A stretch of 64,000 nucleotides of DNA from Candidatus Kaiserbacteria bacterium (GTDB lineage Bacteria > Patescibacteriota > Minisyncoccia > Phycocordibacterales > UBA2100): assembly GCA_016217965.1 (NCBI GenBank), contig JACRFI010000016.1, positions 1,837 to 65,836 on the forward strand, given 5' to 3'. Every line of letters starts with the position of its first letter. Within the stretch, counting starts at the first letter, position 1. The position numbers were made by a program, and so were the translations under genes. This document shows, in pieces, positions 20,002 through 42,649 of this stretch. Below the pieces are notes generated by a model. The model did no database searches and was not told the DNA's origin. It worked only from the letters and a program-made list of their open reading frames with translations.

Positions 20002-20069
20002 GAAATCCACACCCGTGGCGTCAGAGGGTGTATGATAACCGCATTACTTATTAGCGCCCTTTCATATCT

Positions 20070-21677
20070 ATGGCTAAAAAGACGATCGCGGGCCTCATAA
20101 TCGGCTCGGCTGTGTTTTTCTCCTTCGGCATCAGTGTTTTGCCGGCGTCCGCTCTTACAATCGACGAGGTCCAGTCCCAGATACAATCGCTTTTGCAGCA
20201 GATATCGAGCCTTACCAATATCCTCAATTCTCTCAAAGGGCAGACCAACGCATCTATACAATCATCGGTGAATTCAGCTATCTCGATAGCCCCATCACAG
20301 CATCGAATCTGCAATGTTCTCGCAAGAAATCTTGCGCAGGGCACACAGGGCGATGATGTGATGAGTCTGCAAGAGTTTCTAAAAGCAGAAGGATATCTCT
20401 CCGCAAATGCGACTGGCTATTTTGGTCCAATGACAGCACAAGCTGTTGCAAAGTGGCAGGCGAAAGAAGGAGTATCCGCGGTCGGGCATTTTGGCCCGAT
20501 GTCACGCGAGCGCATCAAAATTTGGTGTGGAGGCGGAGGATGGGGTAACCAAGAGCGATTCTCGGCATCTCCCGCGCGCGGCTCGGCGCCACTAACGGTG
20601 GTTTTCGACACGTGGCTATCGGGTTTCAGGGTGCAGAGCATCTACTACACCATCGATTTTGGTGATGGAACGAGCGAAAGAGCTGCTGACTGCTATGCGC
20701 CGGCAGATGCGTGTTTGTCTCCTGGACAGAATAAGCATACGTACTCGCAAAATGGAACGTATACGGCGACCTTGAACAAGATCAGCGATCCATGCCAGGG
20801 AAATCCGGCATGCATGGCGCCGATATCTTCAGAAGTTGTCGCAAAACAGCAGATACATGTGGGGCAAACGGCATGTACAAAAGAATATGTACCGATGTGT
20901 GGCTCCAAACAGATCTACTGCATCACGACACCGTGCAATCCTATCCAGCAAACGTACAGCAATCGCTGCATGATGGAGGCAGATGGTGCATCGTTCTTGC
21001 ATGACGGCCAGTGCCGATCAGATTGGGAGGACCCCGCAAACGACCCGCGGTGCAAGGCTTGGTATGATGGGTGCAATAGTTGTTCGCGTTCTGCACCCGG
21101 ACAGCCTGCGATGTGTACGCTCCGTGCATGTATGTCCGACATGATGGCGAAACCATACTGCACTGCGTACTTCGACGGCACTACAAACAAACCGCCAACG
21201 ATCTCTGGCTTTTCGGGGCCTACGACGCTCAGAGTAAATGAAGCAGGCACATGGACGATCAATGCATCGGACCCAGAAAACGGGCAGCTGAGCTACCAAG
21301 TGTGGTGGGGAGATGAAGGCTACGCGCCGATGGCGAACATGGCTTCGTATGCGCGTGAGTTCACACAGACTACGACGTTCACGCATGCGTATGTAAACTC
21401 GGGTACCTACACCGTGTCGATCATTGTGCGCGACTCATCTGGACAGGAAGCGAAAACTTCCGCGACGGTGAACGTGAACACCGATGTCGCATGCATCGCG
21501 ATATACGATCCAGTCTGCGGCAGGCCCACAGGATGCGCAAACACGTGTCCTCCTGGGCAGTACTGCACTATGATCTGCCAACTGAAACGTCCGGAAACGT
21601 ATTCAAACCGCTGCGCGCTCAATGCAGCAGGAGCAGAATTTCTCTACAACGGCAACTGTGCGAGCACGACGTACTAG
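20070..21677 (+). CDS. secreted peptidoglycan-binding-domain protein with PKD-like and Kazal-like modules
   Basis: Signal peptide, coiled coil 'IQSLLQQISSLTNILNSLKG', PG_binding_1-like 'DDVMSLQEFLKAEGYL…GYFGPMTAQAVAKWQ', 'FGDGTS' PKD-like, Cys patterns 'C..PMCG…TYSNRC…C' Kazal-like (twice). Confidence 0.65.
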   Translation: MAKKTIAGLIIGSAVFFSFGISVLPASALTIDEVQSQIQSLLQQISSLTNILNSLKGQTNASIQSSVNSAISIAPSQHRICNVLARNLAQGTQGDDVMSLQEFLKAEGYLSANATGYFGPMTAQAVAKWQAKEGVSAVGHFGPMSRERIKIWCGGGGWGNQERFSASPARGSAPLTVVFDTWLSGFRVQSIYYTIDFGDGTSERAADCYAPADACLSPGQNKHTYSQNGTYTATLNKISDPCQGNPACMAPISSEVVAKQQIHVGQTACTKEYVPMCGSKQIYCITTPCNPIQQTYSNRCMMEADGASFLHDGQCRSDWEDPANDPRCKAWYDGCNSCSRSAPGQPAMCTLRACMSDMMAKPYCTAYFDGTTNKPPTISGFSGPTTLRVNEAGTWTINASDPENGQLSYQVWWGDEGYAPMANMASYAREFTQTTTFTHAYVNSGTYTVSIIVRDSSGQEAKTSATVNVNTDVACIAIYDPVCGRPTGCANTCPPGQYCTMICQLKRPETYSNRCALNAAGAEFLYNGNCASTTY

Positions 21678-22102
21678 ATAACGCCCCGGATCTTTTCGGC
21701 GATTTTTGCAGCTTCTCCCGCACCGTATGGCTTTCCTTTCCATAGCTCATGCCCGTCGTTCTGGAAGCGAGGCATGATGTGAACGTGCGCGTGAAAAACA
21801 ACTTGCCCTGCTCCGCTTTTATTGTTCATACCAAGATTTATTCCCGTTGGTTGGAGTGCTTTTTCTACTGCTAGCGAAATTTTCTTGACTGCCCCCATTA
21901 CGGCATTCCACTCCTCTTCGTCTATCTCGAACACATCGACAGCGTGTTTTTTGGGCACTACCAGCGTGTGTCCCGGATTTACGGGATTGATATCGAGAAA
22001 CGCAAACGTCTTTTCATCCTCGTATATCTTATTTGTGGGCAATTCTCCGCGAATTATTTTGCAAAAAAGGCAATCAGGCATGGAACTCAGTATAGGATAC
22101 AA
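21674..22102 (-). CDS. HIT-family (histidine triad) nucleotide hydrolase
   Basis: 'HAHVHIMPR' histidine triad, 'CLFCKI' N-terminus. Confidence 0.85.
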   Translation of the reverse strand: MYPILSSMPDCLFCKIIRGELPTNKIYEDEKTFAFLDINPVNPGHTLVVPKKHAVDVFEIDEEEWNAVMGAVKKISLAVEKALQPTGINLGMNNKSGAGQVVFHAHVHIMPRFQNDGHELWKGKPYGAGEAAKIAEKIRGVI

Positions 22103-23790
22103 TGGTCGGAATGGAAGTTTCAGATTTGGTGCGCACGTTGCTTGGGAAACGAGGCATCATCGAGAAAGATACCGTCGATAGATTTTTGGTCCCGGATTTT
22201 TTACGGGACACGCACGATCCGTTCCTGTTAGAAGGAATGGAACGTGCGGTTGCCAGGATTTTCGCGGTGATGGCTCAGAATGAACGCATCGCGATATACG
22301 CCGACTTCGATTGTGACGGAATTCCGGGTGCGGCACTTTTGTCGGATTTTTTTAGGAAAATTGGTTACGAGAATGTTCAAGTCTATATTCCGCATCGGGA
22401 TAGAGAAGGGTATGGATTCCACATTGCCGCGATAGAAAAACTGAAGCAGCAAGGTGTGTCTCTTATCATCACCATAGACGTTGGCACGACTGCGATTGAG
22501 GCTGTAAAACGAGCGAAAGAACTTGGTATCGATGTCATTGTCACCGACCATCATGAATTGAAAGACATTCTTCCTGACGCGGTTGCCGTAATTAACCCTA
22601 AGAACGGTACATATCCCTTTAAAGATCTCTGTGGAGCGGCAGTTGCATGGAAATTAGCATGTGCGCTCCTTGTTGAAGGCCGGAAGCGGGGCGATGCGCG
22701 ATTCACTTCAATTCCGGAGGGATGGGAAAAATGGCTTTTGGATATGGTTGCGATTGCGACCGTTGCAGATCTCGTGCCTCTCGTCGGGGAAAATAGGACT
22801 CTCGCGCACTACGGGCTTAAGGTTCTTCGTAAATCTCCGCGGCTTGGCATAAAGGCGCTCTGTGCGCGTGCACGAGTGCGGCAATTCGAAATTACGGAAG
22901 ACGATATCGCTTTTTCTTTTGCGCCGCGCATCAATGCGGCATCCCGCATGGATGAGCCGGAAGCTGCTTTCAGGTTGTTGACGACGACTGATGGTGACGA
23001 GGCCGAAAAATGCGCGGCGCATCTTGAAAGTTTAAATACGAAACGTCGAGGCGTCGTGGGAGCGGTTGTTCGGGAGGCAAGAAATCGCATCAAGGCACGT
23101 TTTTCGACAGGTGAAAAAGTCATCGTGCTTGGAGATACTGCGTGGAAACCGGCGCTCATGGGACTCGCGGCGAATTCCATCATGGGAGAACGTGGCGGGG
23201 TCGTCTGTATGTGGGGCAGGGACGCAAATGGGCGTCTAAAAGGTTCATGTCGTTCCGACGGCAGCCTATCTGTTGTCGAACTGTTCACGCGCGCCAGTGT
23301 TTCATTTGAGGAATTCGGCGGGCACCATGCATCCGGTGGATTTTCCGTCTCGCATGAATCGGTACACACGCTACACGAATCCCTATCGCGCGCAGCCGGA
23401 GATTTACCGCCCGCAAACGACATCGAAAAGAGGGATCCAGATGCAGAACTCTCCCTCTCGCGCGTAACGAACGTACTCCTCAAAGAACTTTCACAGATGG
23501 CGCCATTCGGGATCGGGAATCCGAAACCGCTTTTTCGTGTCCGAAACACGCGCATTACATTTGCACGCCAATTTGGGAAAGATATGAATCACACCGAAGT
23601 GACATTGGTATGTCCCGATTCTGGCGCGCAGTGCCGCGGATTCCAATTTTTCAAAACCCCAATGGATTTTACTGTTGCACCGTCTCCCGACACACTTGTC
23701 GACGTCTTGGCAACTGTGGAAAGAGACACATTTCGGGGGCCGGATCGCCTAGCGCTCAGGCTCTCTGATATTGTTGCGCCTCTGCAATAG
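22102..23790 (+). CDS. recJ: single-stranded-DNA-specific exonuclease RecJ (DHH family)
   Basis: DHH motifs 'DFDCDG', 'ITIDVG', 'VTDHHE', DHHA1-like C-terminal part. Confidence 0.85.
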   Translation: MVGMEVSDLVRTLLGKRGIIEKDTVDRFLVPDFLRDTHDPFLLEGMERAVARIFAVMAQNERIAIYADFDCDGIPGAALLSDFFRKIGYENVQVYIPHRDREGYGFHIAAIEKLKQQGVSLIITIDVGTTAIEAVKRAKELGIDVIVTDHHELKDILPDAVAVINPKNGTYPFKDLCGAAVAWKLACALLVEGRKRGDARFTSIPEGWEKWLLDMVAIATVADLVPLVGENRTLAHYGLKVLRKSPRLGIKALCARARVRQFEITEDDIAFSFAPRINAASRMDEPEAAFRLLTTTDGDEAEKCAAHLESLNTKRRGVVGAVVREARNRIKARFSTGEKVIVLGDTAWKPALMGLAANSIMGERGGVVCMWGRDANGRLKGSCRSDGSLSVVELFTRASVSFEEFGGHHASGGFSVSHESVHTLHESLSRAAGDLPPANDIEKRDPDAELSLSRVTNVLLKELSQMAPFGIGNPKPLFRVRNTRITFARQFGKDMNHTEVTLVCPDSGAQCRGFQFFKTPMDFTVAPSPDTLVDVLATVERDTFRGPDRLALRLSDIVAPLQ

Positions 23791-23807
23791 GTTGTTACAC
23801 TTGCGCC

Positions 23808-24455
23808 ATGAATACCTTTTCAGTAGGTGAGGCGATCAGGTTCGGGTGGGAATTATTCAAGAAACGTCCCTGGCTCGTGATCGGTGCATTTGTGCTGACT
23901 GGAATGCTTAGTGTCAGTATCCAGTTCACTTTTGGCCCAGAAGAAGGAGCTCCCGTGAATATCCCCGCTATGGTCCTCATTGGCATTTTGTCGGTTGTCG
24001 TGGGCACGCTCGCAGAGATAGGCATGATCACCTTTTCGCTTCGAGCGCATGATGCTATCGATACAGTCGGGATCAGAGACATCTGGAACCCGAAACTGTT
24101 CCTTCCGTATGTATTCGGCAGGATTCTGGTGGGAATCGTCGTCATCGTCGGACTCATCCTTTTAATTGTACCGGGCGTGATCTTGTCATTCGGTTTCATG
24201 TTTACTTCCTACCTGATTGTCGATAAAGGTCTCGGGCCTGTTGCGGCGATGAAGGAGAGTTGGCGTATCACGAAAGGTCATAAGTGGCAGCTTGCTTTGC
24301 TTGGTCTTGCATTTGCAGGATTAAACATTCTCGGACTGCTAGCCTTGGTAGTCGGACTCCTCGTCACGATACCCGTTACTTTGCTTGCGGCTGTGCACGT
24401 GTATCGAACTCTCGAGCACAAAGCGAGCGAAATGGTTTCCTCAACGGGCGTATAA
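23808..24455 (+). CDS. polytopic membrane protein (DUF975/YciC-like, hypothetical)
   Basis: 215 aa, 5-6 TM helices. Confidence 0.55.
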   Translation: MNTFSVGEAIRFGWELFKKRPWLVIGAFVLTGMLSVSIQFTFGPEEGAPVNIPAMVLIGILSVVVGTLAEIGMITFSLRAHDAIDTVGIRDIWNPKLFLPYVFGRILVGIVVIVGLILLIVPGVILSFGFMFTSYLIVDKGLGPVAAMKESWRITKGHKWQLALLGLAFAGLNILGLLALVVGLLVTIPVTLLAAVHVYRTLEHKASEMVSSTGV

Positions 24456-24464
24456 ATTCGTGAT

Positions 24465-24527
24465 ATGTCGGTAGTCATTTACACCGACGGCGGAGCGCGC
24501 GGCAACCCTGAGCCGTCGTCGCAATGA
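24465..24527 (+). pseudogene. rnhA 5' fragment (20 codons, MSVVIYTDGGARGNPEPSSQ*)
   Basis: Encodes the RNase HI N-terminal motif (I-YTDGGARGNPGP) with GC-rich codons unlike the intact rnhA 116 bp downstream; followed by GC-rich hairpins 24528-24640. Confidence 0.5.
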
Positions 24528-24642
24528 ACTGCTCCTCCTTGAGAACCCTCGGTTCTCAACGGCTTCGCCTGCTCTCCGACACGGGGAACTCCCGTTCCCC
24601 GACCCTCTTCCCCGACCCCGGATTACCTGTAGACTGTTTCTG

Positions 24643-25077
24643 ATGTCAGCGACACAAAACATAATTATTTATACAGATGGAGGAGCAAGAGGTAATCCGG
24701 GACCGGCAGGTGCTGGGATTGTTGCTTATAATGACGAGAAGAAGATTTTTGAATTAAAGAAATATCTTGGCGATAACCGGACAAATAATTGGGCGGAATA
24801 CGAAGCGCTTATTCTTGCGCTAACTGAGGCAAAGAAGAAGGGTCTGGGAGGAAAAGAACTTGAAATTCGCATGGACAGCGAACTTATTGTGCGGCAGATG
24901 ACGAATGAATATCAAGTAAAAGAAGAAACTCTCTGGCCGCAGTACATGAAAGCGCACAATCTTCTTGTTGCCCATTTTCCGAATGTGAAGTTCGTTCACG
25001 TCCGTCGTGAAGAAAACAAAGAGGCAGACAAGTTGGTAAACGAGGCTATAGACACAATGTTACAGGTCACTGATTAA
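24643..25077 (+). CDS. rnhA: ribonuclease HI
   Basis: 'IIYTDGGARGNPGPAG', catalytic D/E/D, 'YEALILAL' motif. Confidence 0.9.
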   Translation: MSATQNIIIYTDGGARGNPGPAGAGIVAYNDEKKIFELKKYLGDNRTNNWAEYEALILALTEAKKKGLGGKELEIRMDSELIVRQMTNEYQVKEETLWPQYMKAHNLLVAHFPNVKFVHVRREENKEADKLVNEAIDTMLQVTD

Positions 25078-25833
25078 ACTCTTTAGTCTAGATTTCTGCT
25101 CCAGATCGAGTCTCGCAATGACAGCTCGCAGATATTCTTCTGAGAGCCGCACGCGAAAACCTTTTCTCATCTCGTACAGACCTTTTGCTACGTCGCTTAT
25201 TTTTACACCGGAAGATAAGGCCGATTGTTGTGTATCTATCTGAAGCGCAATTTGTTCCAGCACCTCGAATTTCCTGTGAGGGTTAGATGGGAGCAAAATA
25301 CCGATTTCCGACACACTCGACACAGTGTCAGCGGGGTCTCTCTCGATATTCTTTTTTCTGAAATCTCTTTTTTGCTTTCCGACCACGGTAACGCCAAATG
25401 CTTCTACAAGGCCTGGATATCGTTGATATAAATACTGGTAGATGGCCCCGGGCTTTTTCTCGATTCGAGTAGCATATTCAGTATAGGTTATAGTTTTTTC
25501 TTGCGTCTGCGCAGTCTCCCAAAGTGGTGTGCGGTAAATTTTGTAAATGGTAACGATGAGTTCAAATTTTTTTACGTGTTCTTCGAGCAAGTGGAGCAAA
25601 TCAGTGGCGTTGCTCATTGTGCAGACGGCTTCGAGTATGTCGAATGCGCGAGTTCCATCTCTCAGCTCTTCGGAGATAGCTTCTAGAGACACCCTCTCCC
25701 CCCTTCCTTCTAGGTTTGTGATGGCACCTTCGCACTTTTCATATGAGACCTCCCTGAAACCAGGCATTGTTATGTCTCGGTTGATATTCTCGTCTGGCGC
25801 GAGCGCAGGTTTGGGGTCCCAGATCTCTTTCAT
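25060..25833 (-). CDS. hypothetical protein
   Basis: 257 aa, no motif recognised; 3' end overlaps rnhA by 18 bp on opposite strand. Confidence 0.45.
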   Translation of the reverse strand: MKEIWDPKPALAPDENINRDITMPGFREVSYEKCEGAITNLEGRGERVSLEAISEELRDGTRAFDILEAVCTMSNATDLLHLLEEHVKKFELIVTIYKIYRTPLWETAQTQEKTITYTEYATRIEKKPGAIYQYLYQRYPGLVEAFGVTVVGKQKRDFRKKNIERDPADTVSSVSEIGILLPSNPHRKFEVLEQIALQIDTQQSALSSGVKISDVAKGLYEMRKGFRVRLSEEYLRAVIARLDLEQKSRLKSLISDL

Positions 25834-25890
25834 GTTGCTCAGTATATCGCAAGACGCATGCTACACTTTTTGCATTATGAGTAATGCTAC

Positions 25891-26352
25891 TTGCTAACAG
25901 CTACAAGCTATTTGCGTATGGAAATTCCAATTAACTATCTTGCCGTACTGGCAGCGGCGATATCAAACATGGTCCTTGGTTTTTTGTGGTATGGGCCTCT
26001 TTTCGGGAAAATGTGGTCTCAGCTCATGGGTTGGGGCGAGATGACGCCTGAAAAAATGGCGGAAATGCAGAAAAAGGCACGATCCGCCTATGCAGCGAGC
26101 TTCGTAGGAGCGCTTGTTATGAGTTACGTTCTGGCACACGCCATCATTTTTGGGACGACGTACACGCAGATGTTTGGTGTACTCGGAGGAATGACCGGGG
26201 CATTTTGGTACTGGCTTGGATTCGTTGCTCCCGTCACCGTCGGCTCTGTTCTGTGGGATGGGAAGCCGTGGAAATTGTGGTTCATAAATGCCGGCTATTA
26301 CCTAGCAGCAATGCTAGTGATGGGCGCTATTTTGGGAGGTTGGACGGCATAG
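25891..26352 (+). CDS. DUF1761-like membrane protein
   Basis: 'LGFLWYGPLFGKMW' N-terminal signature, 4 TM. Confidence 0.5.
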   Translation: MLTATSYLRMEIPINYLAVLAAAISNMVLGFLWYGPLFGKMWSQLMGWGEMTPEKMAEMQKKARSAYAASFVGALVMSYVLAHAIIFGTTYTQMFGVLGGMTGAFWYWLGFVAPVTVGSVLWDGKPWKLWFINAGYYLAAMLVMGAILGGWTA

Positions 26353-26353
26353 T

Positions 26354-26737
26354 ATGGCCGACGAAGAGATAAAAATTGTTCCTGATGAGCCGCGTCGAGG
26401 ATGGCGCGAGCGGGGACAAACCATTTTTGCCGCTCCGAGAAGCGGGCTTGTTGGATTTGCAGATTTTATACGCGAGCGCGGTGTGATGGGACTTGCGATA
26501 GGATTTGTCTTGGGTACCTCGGTGCAGAAAGTGGTGACGGCATTCGTGAACGACATTGTGACACCATTCATAAATATTTTCTTGGGGCGCACTGACGGGT
26601 TTGCAAAATTCACTGTGGGACCCTTCGCGATAGGGGATTTTTTGTCGGTGACTATCGATTTCCTCATCCTCCTTGCGATAATCTACTTTGTTTTTAAAGG
26701 CCTTGGTTTAGATCGGTTGGATAAGCAGAAGGAATGA
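26354..26737 (+). CDS. mscL: large-conductance mechanosensitive channel
   Basis: 'FIRERGVMGLAIGFVLGTSVQKVVTAFVNDIVTP' MscL signature. Confidence 0.85.
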   Translation: MADEEIKIVPDEPRRGWRERGQTIFAAPRSGLVGFADFIRERGVMGLAIGFVLGTSVQKVVTAFVNDIVTPFINIFLGRTDGFAKFTVGPFAIGDFLSVTIDFLILLAIIYFVFKGLGLDRLDKQKE

Positions 26738-26831
26738 TCTGTCCCGTTAGAGGCAGGTCGCGTTTTCGCCGAAATATTGCAAAGAATAAAATGTGGATGT
26801 TCGGTACTATGTCACTTAACTCTGATGACTT

Positions 26832-28352: not shown

Positions 28353-28372
28353 CCGTATTGCTGCTGCGCTCC

Positions 28373-29292: not shown

Positions 29293-29378
29293 AAGAAGAT
29301 TCGTATTTGGTATTCAGTATACGGTATGCGGTATGAAATGCGAAGGAAGACCGAGCAATAGAGCAGTATAATTTCCAA

Positions 29379-30242
29379 ATGCAAAAAAGCACGAAAGTTC
29401 TACTCCTCGTGCTCGCGATACTTGTTCTCATCAACGCGGTTATCTGGTATGCGGTTATCCGGAATCAACGAGACGGCACGCTCACCGTTTCATTTCTCAA
29501 TATTGGGCAAGGGGACGCGACATTCATTGAATCGCCCAGTGGCGTACAGGTCCTCATCGACGGCGGCAAAGGGCGTGCGGTACTTCGTGAACTGTCTGGC
29601 GTCATGCCATGGTTCGATCGTTCAATCGATGTTGTTATCGGCACTCATCCGGACCAAGACCACATCGGCGGGCTTCCTGATGTGCTTGCACGGTATCGCG
29701 TTTCGACGGTACTACGCTCGAGCGTTTTGGACGAAGAGGGTTCGGATTTTGCCGCATTCAACGAGGCAATCGCCAAAGAAAAAGAATCCGGCGGAGTGGA
29801 AATGATAGCTGAGCGCGGACAGGTATTTGACCTTGGAGATGGGGCCACGCTCACCATTTTATTTCCTGATCGAGATGTTCCTGGACTCGAAACAAATACA
29901 GGCTCTGTCGTCGCGCGGCTCAAATACGGAAACACATCGTTCATGCTGACGGGGGATTCGCCGCAAAGTATTGAAGAATATTTAGTGCGGCTCGATGGTG
30001 AGGCACTGCACTCGAGCGTCCTCAAAGCGGGACACCATGGTTCTCGCACGTCGTCATCGCCGCTTTTCGTGGGGTTTGTGGATCCGGAATACGCCGTGTT
30101 TTCTCGCGGATGCGACAATTCATACGGTCATCCGCATGAAGAAGTCGTGGAATTATTCAAACGGTTCGAAGTGCAAACGCGTGACACCTGCGATGGCAGG
30201 GTCACGTTCGTATCAGACGGGCAGAGTGTGCGGACTAGATGA
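29379..30242 (+). CDS. MBL-fold metallo-hydrolase (ComEC C-terminal beta-lactamase-like domain as separate gene)
   Basis: N-terminal TM, 'VSFLNIGQGDA', 'GTHPDQDHIGG' HxHxDH motif. Confidence 0.75.
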   Translation: MQKSTKVLLLVLAILVLINAVIWYAVIRNQRDGTLTVSFLNIGQGDATFIESPSGVQVLIDGGKGRAVLRELSGVMPWFDRSIDVVIGTHPDQDHIGGLPDVLARYRVSTVLRSSVLDEEGSDFAAFNEAIAKEKESGGVEMIAERGQVFDLGDGATLTILFPDRDVPGLETNTGSVVARLKYGNTSFMLTGDSPQSIEEYLVRLDGEALHSSVLKAGHHGSRTSSSPLFVGFVDPEYAVFSRGCDNSYGHPHEEVVELFKRFEVQTRDTCDGRVTFVSDGQSVRTR

Positions 30243-34740: not shown

Positions 34741-34784
34741 GTTGCGCTGGCAAAAATCCACAGTTATCGCTCAAATAGACTTGC

Positions 34785-34809
34785 ATTATCGCTCATAATG
34801 AGCGATAAT
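34785..34809. promoter_or_regulatory. perfect 12+1+12 palindrome ATTATCGCTCAT-a-ATGAGCGATAAT (operator-like) upstream of fic-like gene
   Basis: Half-site 'TTATCGCTCA' also at 34764-34774 and as 'ATGAGCGATA' overlapping the ATG at 34820. Confidence 0.5.
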
Positions 34810-34819
34810 GTGATTTAAT

Positions 34820-35875
34820 ATGAGCGATAGTAATCTCAGTCAAAGACAGGCTTCCATACTTGCCAGTATGGGACTTGATACAGACTATTCAGCAGAAAGC
34901 TTGGCGAACTTGTTCGACATTGCTCCTGCCCCAGCGACATTGCGCAGAGACATGCAAAAATTGGAATTACACGGCTACGTAACTCGGCGAGGAGAAAAAA
35001 GGGGAAGGAAATATGCAAAGACGGAACTTGGTGCCCTCTTGAGCCCCTTGGATGCACACGCGTACTTCCTCAAAGAAACAGATGTGCGCCGCGGATTAAA
35101 GACGTATCGTCACGGACTCTGGAATGCCGTACCTGAATCTCTTTTCACCACAGGTGAGCGAGCCGCATTCGCTGCTGCTACCGACATCTATCACGCGCGA
35201 TCGCGCGATATTTCCGAGGTCGTGCGTGCGAAGGAGCTTGAACGCTTCGTGATCGAGCTTTCGTGGAAATCTTCGAGGATCGAAGGCAATACGTATACGC
35301 TTCTTGATACCGAGCGCCTTCTGCGTGAGGGAGTGGAGGCACCCGGGCATGGGAAAGGCGAGGCTATGATGATTCTCAACCACAAGAAAGCGTTCCAGTA
35401 TATCTTGGAATCAAAAAATAAGCGTGAGTTTGTGAATAAGCATTTTGTCGAGGATGTGCATGGCATTCTTGTCGAGAATCTCGGCGTATCACGAGGATTC
35501 AGAAAGGGCGTTGTCGGGGTCACCGGCTCTTCGTATCGGCCTCTCGACATTCCCGCGCAACTGGAAGAAGAGACTGGCGTCTTGTGCCAGGCTGCGGCAC
35601 AGATCAAAGACGCGTATTCGCAAGCACTTCTCATGCTCGTTGGAATAAGTTATATACAGCCTTTTGAAGATGGCAATAAGCGCACCGCGCGACTCATTGC
35701 AAATGCGGTTCTCATTGCGCACGAGAAGGCGCCGCTCTCATATCGAAGCGTCGATGAAACGCTCTATCGCGAAAGTATGCTTACGTTCTACGAACAACTC
35801 TCCATCGTCCCAATGAAAAAGATATTCTCTGATCAATATCTTTTCGCCTGCGAACAGTATCTGAAAAGTTCGTAA
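34820..35875 (+). CDS. Fic/Doc-family protein with N-terminal wHTH-like region and degenerate motif [12 protein letters not shown]
   Basis: Fic/Doc core '[20 protein letters not shown]' (canonical HxFx[DE]GN[GK]R; His replaced by Gln). Confidence 0.7.
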
Positions 35876-35933
35876 AAACGGGTTTTCCGTCAAACACTCC
35901 AGTAGAATCTGCCAGCTTCAAGAGCCTGACCAT

Positions 35934-36081
35934 TGCCAAAGTGCCGCTTTCGGAGCTTTTCGGATTCACCACACAGCTTCGCTCCGCGACCGAAGGCCGC
36001 GCCGTCCCGAACCTTGAGTTCTCGCACTACGTCGTAGTACCACGTAATGTGCAGGAGGAGATAATTGCGTCTCGTAAGTAA
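35934..36081 (+). repeat. fusA 3'-end remnant copy 1 (encodes …[47 protein letters not shown])
   Basis: About 56 nt identical to 34601-34656 of resident fusA then diverged; ends with in-frame stop. Confidence 0.85.
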
Positions 36082-36129
36082 TTCCCAAATACCTGTCCCC
36101 ACCGCGGCCGCCCTGAGCGAAGTCGAAGG

Positions 36130-38412
36130 GTGGCCGCGTGTCATGATGTGTGCATGAACAAAAGCGTTGTAGCGTTTGTGGCAGTCGTCGCGTCGTTTTT
36201 CGTCCCCTTTTTCGCCTCGGCACAAGTTCCTACACCGTCTGCCGGAGGACCGTATTCTGGCGGCGTAAATCCAACCATCAGTTCCCAAAGTGGTACTTCC
36301 GTCGGCGTGTCTATCTCTTCTGTCGGGTCGAACACGTCTATTTCACAATCTTTTGTATGTCCGACGTTGATTCGCACCCTTGTCCGCGGTTCTCGAGGCG
36401 GTGATGTCGCTGGAGTACAAAATTTTCTCATCGCCCAAAAAGATTTGGCGGCAGGCAACAACACCGGCTACTTCGGTACTCTCACTGAAACGGCAGTGAA
36501 ATCGTTCCAGCGAAGAAATAATATAGTCTCAAGTGGCACACCAGGAACGACGGGGTATGGCCTCGTCGGCGCAAAGACACGTGCGGCGATCCAAAGAGCA
36601 TGTGCTGGATCAATGGCCGCACCAACCAATTCGTACTCGTCTCCATCACTAGGTTCGAATTCAGAAATAGACAAACTCCTCGCGCAGATTCAATCGCTTC
36701 AGGCGCAAATGAACCAGGAAGCTAACAAGAGCACTGGAAATTCTTCGGGGACAACGTATGTGCAAGGCTCGTACGCACAAACAAACGCGCCTGTGTATTC
36801 GGAAACGAATTATTACAATCAGGGATCATATACACCCACAGACGACCAGGTCCGACCAGCTTCACCACCGTACTATGGGGTTAACTATTTCGCATCTGGA
36901 TACGGGAATTTCCTCACGGACCAGTTCGATGTGTCAAGGACGCGCATCCAGAACGACATCGGACTCATGCAAAGCATGGGAATCAACGTCGTACGTATAA
37001 GCGTCGCCGGTTTCGCCAACGGGCTTGTGCCATGGACCTACAACCAACCGCGGGGACGAGAATATTTCGACACAGCAAATTGGGAGCTTGCCGGAAACAA
37101 CCTTGCAAAGTTGATCAAGCAATTTAAAGCAGCCCGCATAAAAGTTATTGTGGATTTTGTATCGATAAATTATTTCTTGTTCGCACCGAGCGCGACTGAA
37201 CTCGCCATCCACCCAGTAAGCCAGGCATGCAAAGACGGGTTTGCGTCCGGTTCGATGGGCGTATGGTGGCAGTGCCGGTATCCGAACAGATGGGATGATT
37301 TTGTATGGGACTATACGACCTGGGTGAACGGCATCGTGTGGCTCGTCGAGAATGATTCCGAGGCAGCGTCAAACGTCCTCTACTACGATCCGATCGGAGA
37401 ACTCCAATTTTCGGACCGGACAGGCACCGACATGAAGGCATTCGCGAACATCATTATCGCAAACAACAACATTCCGGCAGGGAAACTTGGCATATCGGTA
37501 CTTAATCCTGAATCGACCACTCCCGCCTCAATCGCGCTTCCGAACCTTAAAACTCTTCTCGATGCGGCAGGCAAAAAACTTTCGTTCATTGATGTGCATT
37601 GTTATCCTGGTATCTCTTGTGCGTTTGGTAGCCAGACTGTTGCCCAGTGGTTTACGGACGCATATACAAATGCGCGGAGATCATTTCCCGCATCTGAAAC
37701 AAAGTTTGTCGTGGGAGAATGGGGCTCCAATTATGATGGTGGAAAAGGCTTGGGCCAAGCGAATTACGATGCACAAGTTGTCAATTGGGCGAAATCCAAC
37801 GGCGATGTCACGGCGCTCGTGCACTGGAATCTCTATGATGACAATCCGAGTTACAACGAATATCACATCGGAGTTGCGCCGACGGCCGGCGTTGCGCAAG
37901 GTACACGAAATACCTATATGGTCCTCGGGACGATGCGCGGGGACTTAATCGATGGTGATTTTGAAAGTGGTATTTCGAAGTGGTTTAACGGCGGCAGTGG
38001 GTCGAACCTAAAGCAGATGCCCATCGAAGCAGTGACGGGTTCGTACTATGGACGCATGCAGGTGACGGCACCCGGACAAAATTGGTTCTGCACGCCAAAT
38101 TTCGTGCTCGCCAATGGCACGCATGTCGCGACCGGCGGTTTCATTCGGACAGCACTTGCAAATGTGACGCTTTCGACCCGATATTTCGATTCAAATTGGA
38201 AACTGATCGGGCAAGATGACATCACGCTTACACAACCAGCGGCTTGGCAGTGGCGGCAAATACAAGAGCAATCGCTGTCAAAACGCGCTACTACGTGGAC
38301 GGGTGCCCCTTATGCTGCACAGGTTTGCTTCGTTTTGAACGGTCCAGCTGGCACATCCGCTACAAATCCGCAGTATCTTGATTTGGATTCGATCACGGTG
38401 CACGATTATTAG
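36130..38412 (+). CDS. secreted peptidoglycan-binding-domain protein with GH5-like TIM-barrel glycoside hydrolase domain
   Basis: Probable true start ATG 36154 (MNKSVVAF…, signal peptide); PG_binding_1-like 'GDVAGVQNFLIAQKDL…GYFGTLTETAVKSFQ'; 'GINVVRISV' and 'VVGEWGSNYDGG' GH5-like strands. Confidence 0.6.
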   Translation: MAACHDVCMNKSVVAFVAVVASFFVPFFASAQVPTPSAGGPYSGGVNPTISSQSGTSVGVSISSVGSNTSISQSFVCPTLIRTLVRGSRGGDVAGVQNFLIAQKDLAAGNNTGYFGTLTETAVKSFQRRNNIVSSGTPGTTGYGLVGAKTRAAIQRACAGSMAAPTNSYSSPSLGSNSEIDKLLAQIQSLQAQMNQEANKSTGNSSGTTYVQGSYAQTNAPVYSETNYYNQGSYTPTDDQVRPASPPYYGVNYFASGYGNFLTDQFDVSRTRIQNDIGLMQSMGINVVRISVAGFANGLVPWTYNQPRGREYFDTANWELAGNNLAKLIKQFKAARIKVIVDFVSINYFLFAPSATELAIHPVSQACKDGFASGSMGVWWQCRYPNRWDDFVWDYTTWVNGIVWLVENDSEAASNVLYYDPIGELQFSDRTGTDMKAFANIIIANNNIPAGKLGISVLNPESTTPASIALPNLKTLLDAAGKKLSFIDVHCYPGISCAFGSQTVAQWFTDAYTNARRSFPASETKFVVGEWGSNYDGGKGLGQANYDAQVVNWAKSNGDVTALVHWNLYDDNPSYNEYHIGVAPTAGVAQGTRNTYMVLGTMRGDLIDGDFESGISKWFNGGSGSNLKQMPIEAVTGSYYGRMQVTAPGQNWFCTPNFVLANGTHVATGGFIRTALANVTLSTRYFDSNWKLIGQDDITLTQPAAWQWRQIQEQSLSKRATTWTGAPYAAQVCFVLNGPAGTSATNPQYLDLDSITVHDY

Positions 38413-38419
38413 TCTTCGC

Positions 38420-38485
38420 TTCGTTCTCGCACTATGCGATTGTCCCAAAAACGTTGCAGATGAAGTGATCGCCTCGCGCAAATAG
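38420..38485 (+). repeat. fusA 3'-end remnant copy 2 (…FSHYAIVPKNVADEVIASRK*, 1-nt frameshift)
   Basis: Matches last about 22 codons of fusA. Confidence 0.75.
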
Positions 38486-38554
38486 AAAACGTCACATGGC
38501 ATAGCCTGAACAATGTCCACAGGCGTCTCCGCTGCCCCATTGAAAAAAGCAAGA

Positions 38555-38562
38555 GGGGGGGG
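38555..38562 (+). repeat. G8 homopolymer tract 13-20 nt upstream of ATG 38575
   Basis: 'aagaGGGGGGGGtagcattgggacATG'. Confidence 0.8.
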
Positions 38563-38574
38563 TAGCATTGGGAC

Positions 38575-39858
38575 ATGAAAAACATCCCACGGGTTGGTGT
38601 GCTTATCAGTGCTATTCTCCTTGCGCCTGCGTTCGCGGCAGCTCAAGACGCGCTCGGAAGTCCTATGCCTTCAATGGGTCCGGGAATAATTTGCCAAGCG
38701 GAAATGAATGCCGCCATTGCGGTCGGTCTGCAAAATAGGGAAAAGGCCGAGGTAAAGGCGCTCGATGCGTGCCTAAAAAATAACGCGTCGACACTACCCA
38801 TGCCCTCAATGACCTCTGAGGCAAGCGACTCTGGCAGCGTAACATCGGGTATTACCCCGAACACGAATGGCAGCGGCGCTTCATGCCCCAAAATTCTTCG
38901 TACGCTTTTCGTCGGCAGCACTGGGGATGACGTGGTGGCATTGCAGGTATTCCTTATTGCGCAAGGCGATCTTGCCGCAGGCAATACCACCGGCTACTTT
39001 GGCGTTCTTACGGAAGCGGCGGTAAAAGCATTTCAGTCGGCGCATGGTATAGAGAACGCTGGCATGGTGGGTCCGAAGACTCGCGCGGCGATCGCGCAAA
39101 TATGCGGCGGTACCGTTTCCACGAACACCCCTTCCTCTAGCGGCGGTTCAACGGGCAATCAATCGCTCATTGATTCGCTTCTACAGCAGATAAAAGTTCT
39201 GCAGGAGCAGATAAAGAATATCTCAGGGAACACAAACACAAACACAAATACGAATACAACGTCAACCAACACCAATACGACATCAACCAATATCAACACA
39301 ACTTCTTCGACTGCCGCGACTCCGCAAACTTTCGACTACATGGCGTCATTCCATTCCGGCCCGCAATCTGGGGGCGACCAGAGCCTGGCGCCGTACTTCG
39401 GCCAGAACCCGTCGGGACCATGGTGGTATGGGTATGCGGATTCCGTAACCGGCGCGACGAAGTTCATGTCGTGGGACGGGACCGTCCCCTCATGGATCGG
39501 CGGCTATGGAGGATTCCCGCGTCTCTACAACTGGGGTGGGTACGTCTACGGCTCGTCGGCAATAATCGTTTGGGTGGCACCGCGTGCGGGTACCGTCACG
39601 ATAGCCGGAAGTGTCTCGCGACAAGGGATTGGCGGGGCTGATGCGACGTGCTCAGGCGCGACGCCGATCGTCGCGTATGTCTATCAGGATGGAAAGGCTT
39701 TGTGGTCGGCGAGCATGATGCCGGGAGATGCTGGCAAAGCGTATTCACTCTCCGGCACAGTGAATCAGGGCAGCAACGTGTCGTTCATCATGCAGCCGGC
39801 AGGTGCAAGCCCGGCCTGCAACATCGTGTACTGGAATCCGACTGTCGTGCTTAAATAA
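38575..39858 (+). CDS. secreted peptidoglycan-binding-domain protein with (TN)n linker
   Basis: Signal peptide 'MKNIPRVGVLISAILLAPAFAAA', PG_binding_1-like 'DDVVALQVFLIAQGDL…GYFGVLTEAAVKAFQ', 'NTNTNTNTNTTSTNTNTTSTN' linker, C-terminal beta domain. Confidence 0.65.
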   Translation: MKNIPRVGVLISAILLAPAFAAAQDALGSPMPSMGPGIICQAEMNAAIAVGLQNREKAEVKALDACLKNNASTLPMPSMTSEASDSGSVTSGITPNTNGSGASCPKILRTLFVGSTGDDVVALQVFLIAQGDLAAGNTTGYFGVLTEAAVKAFQSAHGIENAGMVGPKTRAAIAQICGGTVSTNTPSSSGGSTGNQSLIDSLLQQIKVLQEQIKNISGNTNTNTNTNTTSTNTNTTSTNINTTSSTAATPQTFDYMASFHSGPQSGGDQSLAPYFGQNPSGPWWYGYADSVTGATKFMSWDGTVPSWIGGYGGFPRLYNWGGYVYGSSAIIVWVAPRAGTVTIAGSVSRQGIGGADATCSGATPIVAYVYQDGKALWSASMMPGDAGKAYSLSGTVNQGSNVSFIMQPAGASPACNIVYWNPTVVLK

Positions 39859-39879
39859 AAAGTTCGCATACCCACTAAC

Positions 39880-39945
39880 CCAAAGTTTGATGCTGGGTGC
39901 TGAATTTGGAATTCTCTCACTACGCTATCGTCCCCAGAAATGCCT
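39880..39945 (+). repeat. fusA 3'-end remnant copy 3 (internally deleted; …EFSHYAIVPRN…)
   Basis: 'ccaaagt' junction plus 'gaattctctcactacgctatcgtccccagaaatg'. Confidence 0.65.
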
Positions 39946-40044
39946 GCCCCGTTAGAACTTTAGTTTCTAATGGGGTTGCTAACTAAGTGATAGGCGCGAG
40001 GACGCTCGTATTGACGAATTGGCTAATTGGGCTACTATTGGCGC

Positions 40045-40314
40045 ATGAGCAAGATAACCATGCCTACATTTGCGGCGAGCGAGGCGAAGAATAACTTCGG
40101 GAGGCTTATCGATGCCGCGCAGCGCTCGCCTGTCGCGATCAAGCGGCGCGGCCGCTCCGTTGCGTTCGTCATCTCGCCGTCAGACATGGAGACGATTGAG
40201 GATCTATGGCTGGGTATGCAAGCGCATAAAGCGATGCGGCGAGGTAAATTCTTGAGCGCTGAGGAAACGAAGAAATATATGGACGGTGTGCTGAAGCACC
40301 ATGCTCGACGTTAG
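40045..40314 (+). CDS. Phd/YefM-family antitoxin
   Basis: 'MPTFAASEAKNNFGRLIDAAQRSPVAIKRRGRSVAFVISPSDMETIEDL' YefM fold signature; overlaps toxin gene by 14 nt. Confidence 0.7.
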   Translation: MSKITMPTFAASEAKNNFGRLIDAAQRSPVAIKRRGRSVAFVISPSDMETIEDLWLGMQAHKAMRRGKFLSAEETKKYMDGVLKHHARR

Positions 40315-40576
40315 GATACTCGACGAGGCGCAGGAAATCCTGGATGCGCTATCAGAAAAACATCGGCATCAAATTGTCAAAAAGATCGCACTGCTCGCGC
40401 AGCAGCCATATCACCCGCGTTCGAAACAGTTGGAAGGATATGCGCCGCTTCGACGCATGTCTTCTGGAGAATATCGCATTGTGTATTTCATTGAGGGCAA
40501 AGTTCTGAAAGTTCCGCTTATCGATAAGCGAGGGGATAACAAAGTATACCGACGACTTAAGCAGTTATTCGGATGA
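40301..40576 (+). CDS. RelE/ParE-family toxin
   Basis: 91 aa, 'PLRRMSSGEYRIVYFIEGKVLKV' RelE/ParE C-terminal core. Confidence 0.75.
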   Translation: MLDVRILDEAQEILDALSEKHRHQIVKKIALLAQQPYHPRSKQLEGYAPLRRMSSGEYRIVYFIEGKVLKVPLIDKRGDNKVYRRLKQLFG

Positions 40577-40605
40577 TAAATTGCTTTGAACGTCGTTATC
40601 GAAAA

Positions 40606-40773
40606 AAAGCCTGCTCTCCGAAATGTTCGGATTTACAACACAATTACGGTCGTTGACGGAGGGAAGATCTGTCCCAAACCTCGAGTTTTCTCACTACCCC
40701 AGTAGGTGATTGTACTCAATCAGCTGTTGTCCCTCGAAATGTTGCGGATGAAGTTATTGCGGCGAGGAAATAG
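40606..40773 (+). repeat. fusA 3'-end remnant copy 4 (…[26 protein letters not shown]-[28-bp insert]-VVPRNVADEVIAARK*)
   Basis: Translated similarity to EF-G C-terminus ending in in-frame TAG. Confidence 0.8.
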
Positions 40774-40785
40774 AAAAATCCTCTC

Positions 40786-40836
40786 CACACACTGCCGCGC
40801 TTAATGCGCGGCAGTGTGTCATGATTACCGCATTAC
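40786..40836 (+). promoter_or_regulatory. 14-bp perfect hairpin (CACACACTGCCGCGC-ttaat-GCGCGGCAGTGTGT) followed by GTGTCATGATTACCGCATTAC box
   Basis: Same architecture at 20008-20048, 36103-36147, 42595-42636 upstream of paralogous genes. Confidence 0.55.
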
Positions 40837-42577
40837 ACATCACCCATCTCTATTCATGCTAAAAAAAGTCGCATTCAGCAGCATCGGATTACTCCTCCTA
40901 ATCTCTCCGTTCGCAGCATCTGCAGATCTCCTTAGCGACCTCCAAGCGCAGATACAAGCACTTCTTGCGCAGATTGCGGCATTGCAGGGGACATCAATGA
41001 TCCCTGACTCGGACACTCCGACAGAGCATCCGACATCATCATGCCCACATCTGACAGTCGCTCTCCAACGGGGCAGTCGCGATGCAAATACGGGAGGACA
41101 AGTCTCAGAACTTCAAATATTTCTCGCAAATCGTTACGGTCTCAACGACGATGATATCGTGAGCGGATTCTTCGGCGCAATGACAGAGAAATACGTCATC
41201 AAATTCCAACAAGAACAAGGACTTCCCGTGTTCGGCCTCGTAGGTCCTATGACCAGGGCGAAGATCGCAGAGGTGTGCGGGGGCATCATCTCTCCGTCGA
41301 ATGCCGCATCCGAGGCAAACCCGGTACTTGTCTTTCCGCCTCGTAGAATCACGAGCGACACAAACAGCTTCTCCAACAGCTTCTCCGCGTCGCCGATGTC
41401 AGGAAGTGCGCCACTCACCGTAACGTTCTCCATGACTCAATACGGGGCGAGATCCCTACTGATAGATTTCGGAGACGGTGCGGTACAAAAAACCGACGAC
41501 TCTTGCCTTGTCGGCCCGGATTGTAAAGAACCGTACGTACGTTCGCACACTTACATCTCACCAGGCACGTATATTGTCCGACTCTCAAATGCATCCGTCT
41601 GCGACGCGCCACCCGGGGTACTGTGTTCACTCGCCCCCGATCAGATTGTCGGTACGGTGACGATCACCGTCACGGACGGGACCCGCAAATGTGGTGTAAA
41701 TTCATTTAAAGTAGTGAACCAATGTGGCACAAGCGAATACAGAAATGCGTACTTCCAGTGTTATGACGGGTATGAGCAGACCATCGGTGAGAGCAGTTCG
41801 TGCAAACCGCCCTCGGTATGGGAAGAATATGCCCGCGATGCGTGTGCCAAACATTGTTCGAACACTGCAAGCAGTATTACCGTCACATCACCCAATGGCG
41901 GAGAGCAGATCGAAATCGGACAGCCACATAAAATTACTTGGAAACAAGTCGGGCTCTCGAATGTATCCATTGCACTGTACAGAGACGATCAAGTGAAACA
42001 GTGGATTGCGCGAGATATTAGCTTGGAGAAAGATGCCGTTGACACATATGCGTACGTCTGGACACCGGCGCAAACCGACACTAACATTAATGCGTTCACA
42101 ATCTACATCACCGGCCCAAAAGCCGACGGCACAGGCTCCATCGACGACAAAAGTGACGCTCCATTCAGTTTTGCCAGTGATGCAAGCGGAGTGTGTCAAG
42201 TTGTTGACCTCTACGCCACGCAAGTCCCGGGGTATGTCTACTCTGATCTCTTTATGGTCGTGCGCGGACTGCCGACAGGATCTGGTCAGGTTAGTATCAC
42301 CGGAGCAGATTCATGGAACAATTTGATGTTCTCTTCCCAGGGGCTTGATTCTGCGGGAAATCTCCTCTTGCAAGCAAATCAAACGATTAATTCGACGGGT
42401 GTCTCGTATATTCTTGAGCGCGAGAATGCCATCACGCCAATTTCCTACGGCGGTGTATCAATATCGTGTCAATCTATTTCTGGCACGACCGCATCCGCAC
42501 AGAGTACGCAATTAGCATCAGCACTCGTTGCACTCGAATCAGCCCTCAAAGCAATGCTGAAATTGTTGGGGCAATAG
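40814..42577 (+). CDS. secreted peptidoglycan-binding-domain protein with PKD-like domains
   Basis: Probable true start ATG 40856 (MLKKVAFSS… signal peptide); coiled coil; 'GQVSELQIFLANRYGL…GFFGAMTEKYVIKFQ'; 'FGDGAVQKTDDSC' PKD-like. Confidence 0.65.
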   Translation: MCHDYRITHHPSLFMLKKVAFSSIGLLLLISPFAASADLLSDLQAQIQALLAQIAALQGTSMIPDSDTPTEHPTSSCPHLTVALQRGSRDANTGGQVSELQIFLANRYGLNDDDIVSGFFGAMTEKYVIKFQQEQGLPVFGLVGPMTRAKIAEVCGGIISPSNAASEANPVLVFPPRRITSDTNSFSNSFSASPMSGSAPLTVTFSMTQYGARSLLIDFGDGAVQKTDDSCLVGPDCKEPYVRSHTYISPGTYIVRLSNASVCDAPPGVLCSLAPDQIVGTVTITVTDGTRKCGVNSFKVVNQCGTSEYRNAYFQCYDGYEQTIGESSSCKPPSVWEEYARDACAKHCSNTASSITVTSPNGGEQIEIGQPHKITWKQVGLSNVSIALYRDDQVKQWIARDISLEKDAVDTYAYVWTPAQTDTNINAFTIYITGPKADGTGSIDDKSDAPFSFASDASGVCQVVDLYATQVPGYVYSDLFMVVRGLPTGSGQVSITGADSWNNLMFSSQGLDSAGNLLLQANQTINSTGVSYILERENAITPISYGGVSISCQSISGTTASAQSTQLASALVALESALKAMLKLLGQ

Positions 42578-42649
42578 TTTCAATGGGATCTATCCACACA
42601 AAGCTGCCTCGATCGAGGCGGCTTTGTGTCATGATGAGGGTATAACGGC

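Follow-up and report, generated by a model that had tools for sequence, protein, structure and literature searches.

An element recurring upstream of peptidoglycan-binding protein genes in Candidatus Kaiserbacteria as a probable family promoter with an embedded terminator

Genes for secreted proteins with a peptidoglycan-binding domain (PG_binding_1) recur along a 64,000-nucleotide stretch of a Candidatus Kaiserbacteria genome (contig JACRFI010000016.1; the whole stretch is called the window below) and are preceded by an element that joins a stem of variable sequence to a nearly constant box. A sequence-only reading of the window placed this element at four sites, all of which lie where it put them, and asked whether it is a regulatory hairpin in the 5' untranslated region (UTR), a promoter or insulator specific to the gene family, or a recombination site. 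The explanation that we favor, with a probability of roughly 0.6, is that the repeated element is a family promoter with an embedded terminator or insulator that serves secreted PG_binding_1 proteins of Kaiserbacteria.

Under this explanation the box would be an extended -10 element composed of (G)TG, one base and (C/T)ATGAT, with transcription predicted to start at a conserved A that is the seventh base after the hexamer. The left flank, TRTCCMCA, would be a separate DNA motif located about 30 bp, or alternatively 40, 20 or 8 bp, upstream of the -10 and is a candidate contact for a regulator or for RNA polymerase. The spacer between the two would need no particular sequence, and would have been turned into a GC-rich hairpin where it closely follows a fusA 3' end, a toxin-antitoxin cassette or a family member, with the naturally complementary CAC(AC) and GTG(TG) of the two flanking elements forming the foot of the stem. 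Such a hairpin would most likely act in the RNA of the upstream gene as a terminator or insulator whose U-rich tail overlaps the -10.

Copies of the element and the promoters compared

The copies in the window are as follows, with -10 elements and start sites (+1) as predicted here.

20006..20047, + strand: copy 1, before a PG-binding/PKD gene (ATG 20070); motif TCCACA at 20006-20011
20009-20014 / 20026-20031, + strand: copy 1 stem, weak, 6 bp
20031-20036, + strand: copy 1 -10 TATGAT, TG directly adjacent; N6 20037-20042; predicted +1 A 20043 (ATTAC)
34757..34762, + strand: motif remnant AAATCCACAG, 16 nt past the resident fusA stop, read directly from the sequence
36096..36156, + strand: copy 2; motif TCCCCA at 36096-36101; spacer 40 nt
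36100-36113 / 36128-36140, + strand: copy 2 stem, one bulge, G36110.T36131 wobble
36142-36147, + strand: copy 2 -10 CATGAT, preceded by TGT; N6 36148-36153; ATG 36154 is the predicted +1 (leaderless)
38516..38577, + strand: copy 6, before the fifth PG-binding paralog; motif TCCACA at 38516-38521; spacer 41 nt
38540-38545 and 38563-38568, + strand: copy 6 core, -35 TTGAAA and -10 TAGCAT (17 apart); N6, then ATG 38575, leaderless
40784..40836, + strand: copy 3; motif TCCACA at 40784-40789; spacer 30 nt
40787-40800 / 40806-40819, + strand: copy 3 stem, 14 bp, loop TTAAT
40820-40825, + strand: copy 3 -10 CATGAT, TGT upstream; N6 40826-40831; predicted +1 A 40832 (ATTAC); ATG 40856
42593..42646, + strand: copy 4; motif TATCCACA at 42591-42598; spacer 31 nt
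42596-42610 / 42615-42629, + strand: copy 4 stem, 15 bp, T42605.G42620 wobble; 3' arm ends in CTTTGTGT
42630-42635, + strand: copy 4 -10 CATGAT; N6; predicted +1 A 42642 (ATAAC)
43283..43345, + strand: copy 5; motif TATCCCCA at 43283-43290; spacer 40 nt
43331-43336, + strand: copy 5 -10 TACACT; N6; ATG 43343, leaderless, opening a gene for a 504-aa protein without a Pfam match

Copies 1 to 4 are the sites that had been recognized earlier, and that list was incomplete in that it missed the copies at 38516-38574 and 43283-43342 and the remnant at 34757-34762. Copy 1, with a motif-to--10 spacer of 19 nt, follows an NTP-transferase gene that stops at 19999-20001; copies 2 and 3 sit behind fusA 3' fragments (35935-36081 and 40596-40773, respectively); and copy 4 follows a PG-binding gene that stops at 42575-42577. 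Copy 6 has merely a weak C-rich/G-rich stem, and copy 5 has an imperfect stem with a left arm almost identical to that of copy 2, followed by TTCGTTTT. The remnant is located 41 nt upstream of the -10 GATAAT (34804-34809) of a Fic cassette, whose promoter and operator follow it.

All five PG-binding paralogs in the window carry the Pfam domain PG_binding_1, and the downstream genes also encode a signal peptide. A 573-aa protein of the window is identical to an NCBI entry annotated as 'peptidoglycan-binding protein [Candidatus Kaiserbacteria bacterium]', and the neighbours of its elongation factor EF-G are from Kaiserbacteria and other Patescibacteria. Homologues were gathered by protein similarity alone, with an alignment of the N-terminal domain as query, which yielded 71 metagenome loci; a further 11 loci came from the contigs that encode ten homologues (all loci outside the window are denoted by L numbers below). 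The regions 5' of the homologue start codons, together with promoters retrieved by pattern or model, provided about 35 related Patescibacteria promoters in total, of which 25 were aligned for column statistics and four more (L087, L090, L093 and L117) were added by eye, giving about 29. The exact sequence GTGTCATGAT, the 10-mer of the box, has zero matches in the EF-G neighbourhoods of 80 genomes. This absence first suggested a genome-specific element, an idea that was overturned when the protein-anchored metagenome scan revealed diverged homologues.

The box and the distal motif

Exact copies of GTGTCATGAT number three in the 64 kb (36138, 40816 and 42626), all on the + strand and all intergenic, against 0.14 expected from dinucleotide shuffles, none of which reached three. 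The sequence-only reading had called the box invariant, which holds for these three copies but not for copy 1, whose box GTGTATGAT is one base short; its report of ACCGCATTAC in two copies is exact (20038 and 40827). Matches to the 10-mer with one mismatch are not enriched (4 found versus 4.6 expected).

The upstream regions of the homologues align on the box without gaps, and this alignment defines a simple rule. The second base of the hexamer is A and the sixth is T in 25/25 aligned promoters, with positions 1, 3, 4 and 5 variable (the hexamers seen include CATGAT, TATGAT, CATACT, TAGAAT, CATGCT, CATTGT, CATAAT, CATTAT, CACAAT, AACAAT, AATAAT, TATACT and others), and the four promoters added by eye also fit. 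A G-T-G occupies positions -4 to -2 in 20-22 of the 25 promoters (T at -3 in 20, G at -2 in 22); TG directly adjoins the hexamer in copies 1 and 5, and copy 6, which is without TG, has a -35. At the seventh base past the hexamer, 24 of 25 promoters have an A; a pyrimidine precedes this base equally often, T follows it in all 25, and it opens ATTAC, ATTAT, ATAAC or ATATC. An A at position 2, a T at position 6 and a TG extension are the features that define a -10 element of the sigma-70 type, and a pyrimidine followed by a purine is usual at the start site. Comparative analysis thus gives a positive answer to the earlier question of whether CATGAT acts as a -10, and the suggestion of a family-specific promoter or insulator is backed by the comparison of about 29 related promoters. 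ACCGCATTAC is accordingly best described as the putative stretch from the -10 to the start together with the first transcribed bases.

The conserved A coincides with the A of the start codon in four independent copies (36154, 38575 and 43343 in the window, and L103), a layout that is as predicted for leaderless mRNAs. The GTG starts at 36130 and 40814 that appear among the open reading frames (ORFs) are, as had been suspected, artefacts inside the 3' arm or the box; homologues start with MLKK..., which fits ATG 36154 and 40856. For copy 4 the gene probably starts at ATG 42665 (MFKKVA; compare MLKKVA at 40856) rather than at ATG 42650. Start codons are in this way corrected for three genes. Family members with a leader share CATAT(C/T) 3-8 nt before the ATG. 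Many genes of the window lack a Shine-Dalgarno sequence and carry a -10-like hexamer 6-7 nt ahead of the start codon (for example 29361-29381, 47057-47075, 58651-58671, 43331-43345 and 38563-38577), and leaderless or Shine-Dalgarno-free initiation appears to be common in this genome.

A layout of hairpin, TGnTATGAT, N6 and ATG is found before unrelated genes as well, namely between rplB and a DUF5674 gene in L081 and after fusA in L010 and L012. A scan for -35 elements separated the copies: eight hairpin-free copies have 5/6 matches (seven with TnGACA at 16 nt, and copy 6 with TTGAAA at 17 nt), whereas all six strong-hairpin copies have at most 2/6. Because hairpin copies are without a -35 and eight hairpin-free copies have one, the hairpin appears to occupy the place of a dispensable -35. 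Two other promoter assignments were tried and rejected. A sigma-54 -24/-12 promoter fails on the GG that is missing from most boxes (TGTCAT/TGCCAT), with only L083, L126 and L097 reading TGG, and TCCACA as the -35 partner of CATGAT is ruled out by spacers of 19-41 nt.

The left flank, when anchored on TCC(A/C)CA, is a separate motif of nine positions, T-R-T-C-C-(A/C)-C-A-(C), with 1.5-2 bits at its core positions. The distance from its end to the -10 falls into classes: 29-31 nt in most copies, including copies 3 and 4; 39-42 nt in copies 2, 5, 6 and several others; and, more rarely, 19-21 nt (copy 1 and L097) and 8 nt (L158). An unbiased tally of distances from T[AG]TCC[AC]CA to TGn-nAnnnT over 1.8 Mb has its maxima at 28-31, with 10 cases, and at 40, with 6, and no other bin exceeds 2. 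Periodicity of the spacing is strongest at 10.5-11 bp (R = 0.82), with a permutation p of 0.0016 after the 30-nt cluster is collapsed. Spacing in steps of a helical turn suggests a predicted site at which a regulator or RNA polymerase makes contact on one face of the helix. The motif is not distinctive without its context, as TATCCMCA alone is not enriched in the window (4 exact matches versus about 4 expected by a rough uniform-base estimate) and the 89 matches with one mismatch, versus 62 expected, are mostly noise.

A further proposal, which we regard as tentative and as clearly less probable than the promoter explanation itself, is that TRTCCMCA serves as operator for secreted surface proteins that bind peptidoglycan and form a regulon widespread in Patescibacteria, and that it is read on one helix face at 8, 20, 30 or 40 bp, with a spacer that has repeatedly been made into a terminator whose tail is the -10 of the next gene. 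DnaA may be one candidate reader, given the form similar to a DnaA box in part of the copies. If so, expression of surface proteins in these ultra-small symbionts would be coupled to initiation of replication.

The hairpin in the spacer

Three of the window hairpins are exceptionally stable. Copy 3 (40787-40819) folds at -30.3 kcal/mol (z -7.3), copy 4 (42596-42629) at -28.5 kcal/mol (z -6.0) and copy 2 (36100-36140) at -27.9 kcal/mol (z -3.6), and in each case 0/200 shuffles were as stable. The hairpin that the sequence-only reading saw at each of its four sites is in this respect upheld for copies 2-4 but not for copy 1 (20008), whose 6-bp stem is no better than shuffles (z -0.5, 50/200 as stable).

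Its observation that the stems vary and yet keep their pairing is confirmed. An in-register alignment of copies 2, 3 and 4 with L132, an independent copy from another metagenome, has 98% of its cells paired, with 6 of 14 pairs changed on both sides and 3 with G.U changes, and shuffle and slide controls score far below it. Seven of the wobbles are G.U on the + strand and one is A.C; as to the two that had been specified, G36110.T36131 is correct, while the pair in copy 4 is T42605.G42620 and not 42603/42621. A covariance model trained on the same four copies, the kind of search that had been proposed, recovers in the window only its training copies (61, 71 and 67 bits for copies 2, 3 and 4) and copy 1, which scores no more than 15.3 bits (E 0.06). 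Among other metagenomes the model matches L128 at 48 bits, L103 at 45 bits and also L140; its weaker matches there are L083, L098, L158 and L085.

Strong hairpins are nonetheless the exception, being present in only 8 of about 35 promoters (copies 2, 3 and 4, L132, L128, L103, L160 and L163; z is at most -3 in the six that were scored, and L160 and L163 were added by eye). Most orthologous promoters are without a hairpin yet keep both flanks and the same spacing. All eight strong hairpins lie behind the end of a co-directional coding sequence, 10-20 nt before the motif, and the ends that precede them are four fusA 3' fragments, two family members, one ParE gene and one other ORF; a hairpin is absent from all six promoters whose upstream gene is divergent. 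A stable GC-rich stem-loop soon after a co-directional stop codon is thus found in copies 2-4 and not in copy 1.

Comparison with relatives points to an origin of these hairpins as terminators. Relatives have fusA followed by canonical terminators consisting of an A-tract, a stem and a U-tract; the copy 2 hairpin (CCCCACCGCGGCCGCCC...) is homologous to the terminator-plus-promoter after fusA in L010, AAACACCGGCCGCCC-GAGA-GGGCGGCCGGTGTTTG-CGG-TATACT-N6-ATG; the copy 4 stem resembles a canonical terminator of L151, ACACAAAGCCGC...GCGGCTTTGTGTTTT; and copy 5 retains its TTCGTTTT tail. The combination of conserved ends with a variable middle is also explained, because the end of the motif and the GTG of the extended -10 supply the two sides of the stem foot, CAC/GTG, and are complementary by chance.

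Several observations weigh against a promoter with an embedded terminator. The first position of the hexamer is C, not T, in more than half of the copies, which is unusual for a housekeeping -10. The counts over 25 promoters are partly circular, because some of these promoters had been retrieved with patterns or a model in which the box was already included; inspection by eye shows the same geometry in the subset of about 21 chosen through protein homology alone. Periodicity of the spacing drops to p = 0.05-0.08 under the most conservative collapsing, and homologous promoters are not independent of each other. About 14 co-directional copies have no strong hairpin, and the link between hairpins and co-directional genes is not significant (Fisher p about 0.1, by hand). 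The strong hairpins have no canonical U-tract, their tails being UGUCAUGAU, whose first 8 nt hold 3-5 U according to where one sets the end of the stem, and a scan for consensus terminators made no call on the + strand (tails TGTCATGAT). If only the GC-rich upper part is counted as stem, a partly U-rich tail results (copy 4, TTTGTGTC, with 5 T in 8). Finally, both the -10 assignment and the role in termination, like the start of transcription and protein binding, are ones that we infer from sequence comparison.

The alternative that survives best, although we consider it improbable, is that the hairpin is a cis-regulatory 5'-UTR RNA, such as a stabilising stem-loop, a protein site or an attenuator, with transcription starting at or before TRTCCMCA and with GUGUCAUGAU as a single-stranded recognition sequence. 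Stems that covary with G.U wobbles on the sense strand are what such an RNA would show, a AAATACCT-type sequence before the motif in copy 2, L085 and L086 is a possible weak -10, and distant family members (L087, L090 and L093) do have long leaders with a terminator-like hairpin. Against it, the 30 nt upstream of the motif have no conserved position, with information below 0.45 bits throughout, which speaks against a conserved promoter from which the hairpin would be transcribed as part of a 5' UTR. Additionally, the box is only 6 nt from the start codon in four copies and its hexamer obeys the rules of a -10. The inference from conserved structure to a functional RNA does not hold up, since the hairpin is missing from most orthologous promoters and no Rfam 15 family reaches its gathering score in the window or in any of 18 related loci, and 35800-43500 has no match even at E<=1. 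A tRNA/tmRNA scan likewise found none.

The distant members are an observation in their own right. In L087 (4766-4915), L093 (1599-1745) and L090 (4352-4580) the arrangement motif-40-TGnAACAAT-N6-ATTATT is kept, and is followed by leaders of 90-170 nt, each closed just ahead of the ATG by a terminator-like hairpin and its T-run. Rfam finds nothing in these leaders, which could be candidate attenuators or riboswitch-like leaders.

The fusA-tuf island and likeness to known systems

The genomic setting of copies 2 to 6 gives some appeal to a second alternative, in which the hairpin is a recombination site, either attC-like or for a single-strand transposase, that bounds mobile cassettes piled up downstream of fusA. 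The region from the fusA stop to the tuf start (34741-48958) is a 14-kb variable island that measures 0.5-6 kb in relatives. Truncated fusA 3' ends, at least four in number (35935-36081, about 38421-38485, about 39905-39945 and 40596-40773), flank an HTH-Fic cassette (34820-35875) and a Phd/ParE cassette (40027-40576), and the same pattern of fragments recurs in L103 (two fragments), L155 and L160. At the left edge of the Fic cassette lies the motif that follows the resident fusA, and the element itself has conserved complementary ends, a variable centre and a place between cassette-like genes, as an attC site would.

We nevertheless judge a recombination site to be very improbable. The GTTRRRY/RYYYAAC core is missing, the left end being TCCACAC and the right end GTGTCAT, and the stems are perfect or nearly so, have no extrahelical bases and span 33-42 nt as opposed to the 57-141 nt of attC. 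A Pfam search of essentially all ORFs of the 64 kb found no tyrosine recombinase or HUH transposase, the only transposase being of the rve type at 51479. The flanks are fully explained as promoter parts and persist without a hairpin beside divergent genes, the downstream genes have their own promoters, and the duplicated fusA segments begin inside fusA and not at the hairpin. A hairpin site of the REP/RAYT or IS200 type was rejected for the same want of a core consensus and of a recombinase or HUH transposase in the Pfam search.

Two remaining alternatives are easily set aside. That the ATG of the box starts an upstream ORF or leader peptide which couples or attenuates translation is barely credible: an ATG lies inside the box in all four original copies, the peptides of copies 1 and 3 (MITAL...) share MITAL-x-I-(S/T) with three synonymous-type differences, and the frame of copy 2 (MMCA*) overlaps the gene ATG and ends in ATGA across the gene start, but homologous promoters lack the ATG (CATACT, TAGAAT, CATTGT, CATAAT, AACAAT and CACAAT), conservation downstream ends at ATTAC and no reading-frame pattern is seen across the family. 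Equally implausible are functionless leftovers of a recent duplication that carried the paralogous genes along; the identical 10-mer in three copies and the nearly identical left arms of copies 2 and 5 would fit, but the conserved flanks are not merely recent duplication because the paralog proteins have pairwise identities of just 18-32%, at which neutral DNA would be randomised, and the architecture recurs with different sequences in many unrelated metagenomes with stems that keep pairing through compensatory changes.

Apart from these questions, the island and its surroundings contain further repeated features. The first fusA fragment is nearly identical to the resident fusA over its first 60 nt or so and diverged over the remainder, which recalls the att-site duplication of integrative elements, yet there is no integrase. 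Upstream of the HTH-Fic gene (34763-34819), a perfect 23-bp palindrome TTATCGCTCATAATGAGCGATAA and a half-site TTATCGCTCA overlap a promoter TTGCAT-16-GATAAT, and this palindrome is likely an autoregulatory operator. A hairpin of the form CC(C/T)CGTTAGAAC-loop-GTTTCTAATGGGG is found at or inside gene 3' ends, namely in a fusA fragment of the window (39937-39980), in fusA of L006 (12174-12211) and in rplB of L081 (3207-3240); in L006 and L081 the displaced 3' end of the gene is present again behind it as a short, recoded duplicate. This CC(C/T)CGTTAGAAC hairpin may represent a small element, mobile or of homing type, with gene 3' ends as its target. Duplicated 3' ends also occur between tuf and the S10 region (51479-54790), which contains the rve-type transposase gene (51479-52726), an AbiEii toxin gene (52978-53646, minus strand) and a gene for a SWIM-finger protein; nearly identical rpsJ-like 3' ends (about 52687-52971 and about 54620-54763) flank this block in the same manner as seen for fusA. 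In another Kaiserbacteria genome (L081 3296-7269; GCA_016217925.1) a family member is inserted, together with DUF5674 and acetyltransferase genes, inside the S10 operon between rplB and rpsS; the inserted block ends in its own terminator, and rpsS has its own promoter, TTGACA-17-TATACA. Short tandem repeats of the GCTTCTAGCT / CTAGCTACAAG type flank tuf and other highly expressed genes (48900-48958, 50159-50205, 6744-6790 and 7480-7517).

To our knowledge there has been hardly any experimental work on promoters, terminators or regulons in Patescibacteria (the Candidate Phyla Radiation), and we know of no characterised promoter from this group; full-text literature searches on its promoter motifs and on leaderless transcription returned nothing relevant. 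The comparison presented here yields a testable promoter model with a distal motif, an extended -10, a fixed start and frequent leaderless mRNAs, and does so for a large and fast-evolving family of surface proteins whose probable role is attachment to host cell walls. It also provides a candidate regulator motif that can be used to define a regulon in complete genomes. For motif hunters there is a caution, in that conserved ends with a covarying stem can arise from a terminator squeezed between promoter elements. Most likely the element is a fairly ordinary form of control in a compact genome, a variation on known themes and neither a new class of RNA nor a new recombination site, with the distal motif, its phased spacing and a -10 that would double as a terminator tail being of modest interest for Patescibacteria.

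When set beside known systems, the element shares with integron attC sites its conserved complementary ends, variable paired centre and position between co-directional genes, but its hairpin is facultative and too short, it has neither the GTTRRRY core nor extrahelical bases, no integrase is nearby and the genes have promoters of their own. The likeness of the distal motif to a DnaA box (TTATCCACA / TTATNCACA) extends to 8-9 of 9 positions in a minority of copies (CTATCCACA at 42590-42598, TTATCCACA in L097 and L150, TTATTCACA in L140); it is a resemblance in sequence, and differs in that position 7 is C and not A in 11 of 22 copies (TCCCCA), including most of those from other genomes, and in that each promoter has a single box. 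The related loci collected contain no dnaA gene. With sites of class I/II activators and UP-like elements, the motif has in common that it is short and distal and is placed at about 8, 20, 30 and 40 bp in steps of about 10-11 bp, much as CRP sites are phased at -41.5, -61.5 and -71.5; unlike UP elements it is not A/T-rich, and the phasing statistics are only suggestive.

Like intrinsic terminators, the hairpins have GC-rich stems (13-16 bp) and, in most copies, loops of 4-5 nt (14 nt in copy 2), are located 10-20 nt past a co-directional stop and occupy a position homologous to the canonical fusA terminators of L003, L005, L007, L010 and L012. They differ from them in that the tail is the -10 element itself and in that the hairpin lies between two elements of the downstream promoter and not upstream of the promoter as a whole. 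Tandems of terminator and promoter are common in these genomes (50205-50275 in the window, L081 7296-7340, L009 and L012). From extended -10 promoters of the sigma-70 type the element departs in its C-first hexamers (CATGAT and CATACT) in more than half of the copies, the conserved ATTAC at the predicted +1 and the conserved distal motif. It agrees with them in the TG one base before the hexamer, the invariant A2 and T6, the predicted start purine at the seventh base after the hexamer and a -35 that appears dispensable in the hairpin copies, and in four copies the predicted start is the A of the ATG, as in leaderless genes. The TG often has a G before it, as the Gram-positive TRTG motif of the -16 region does.

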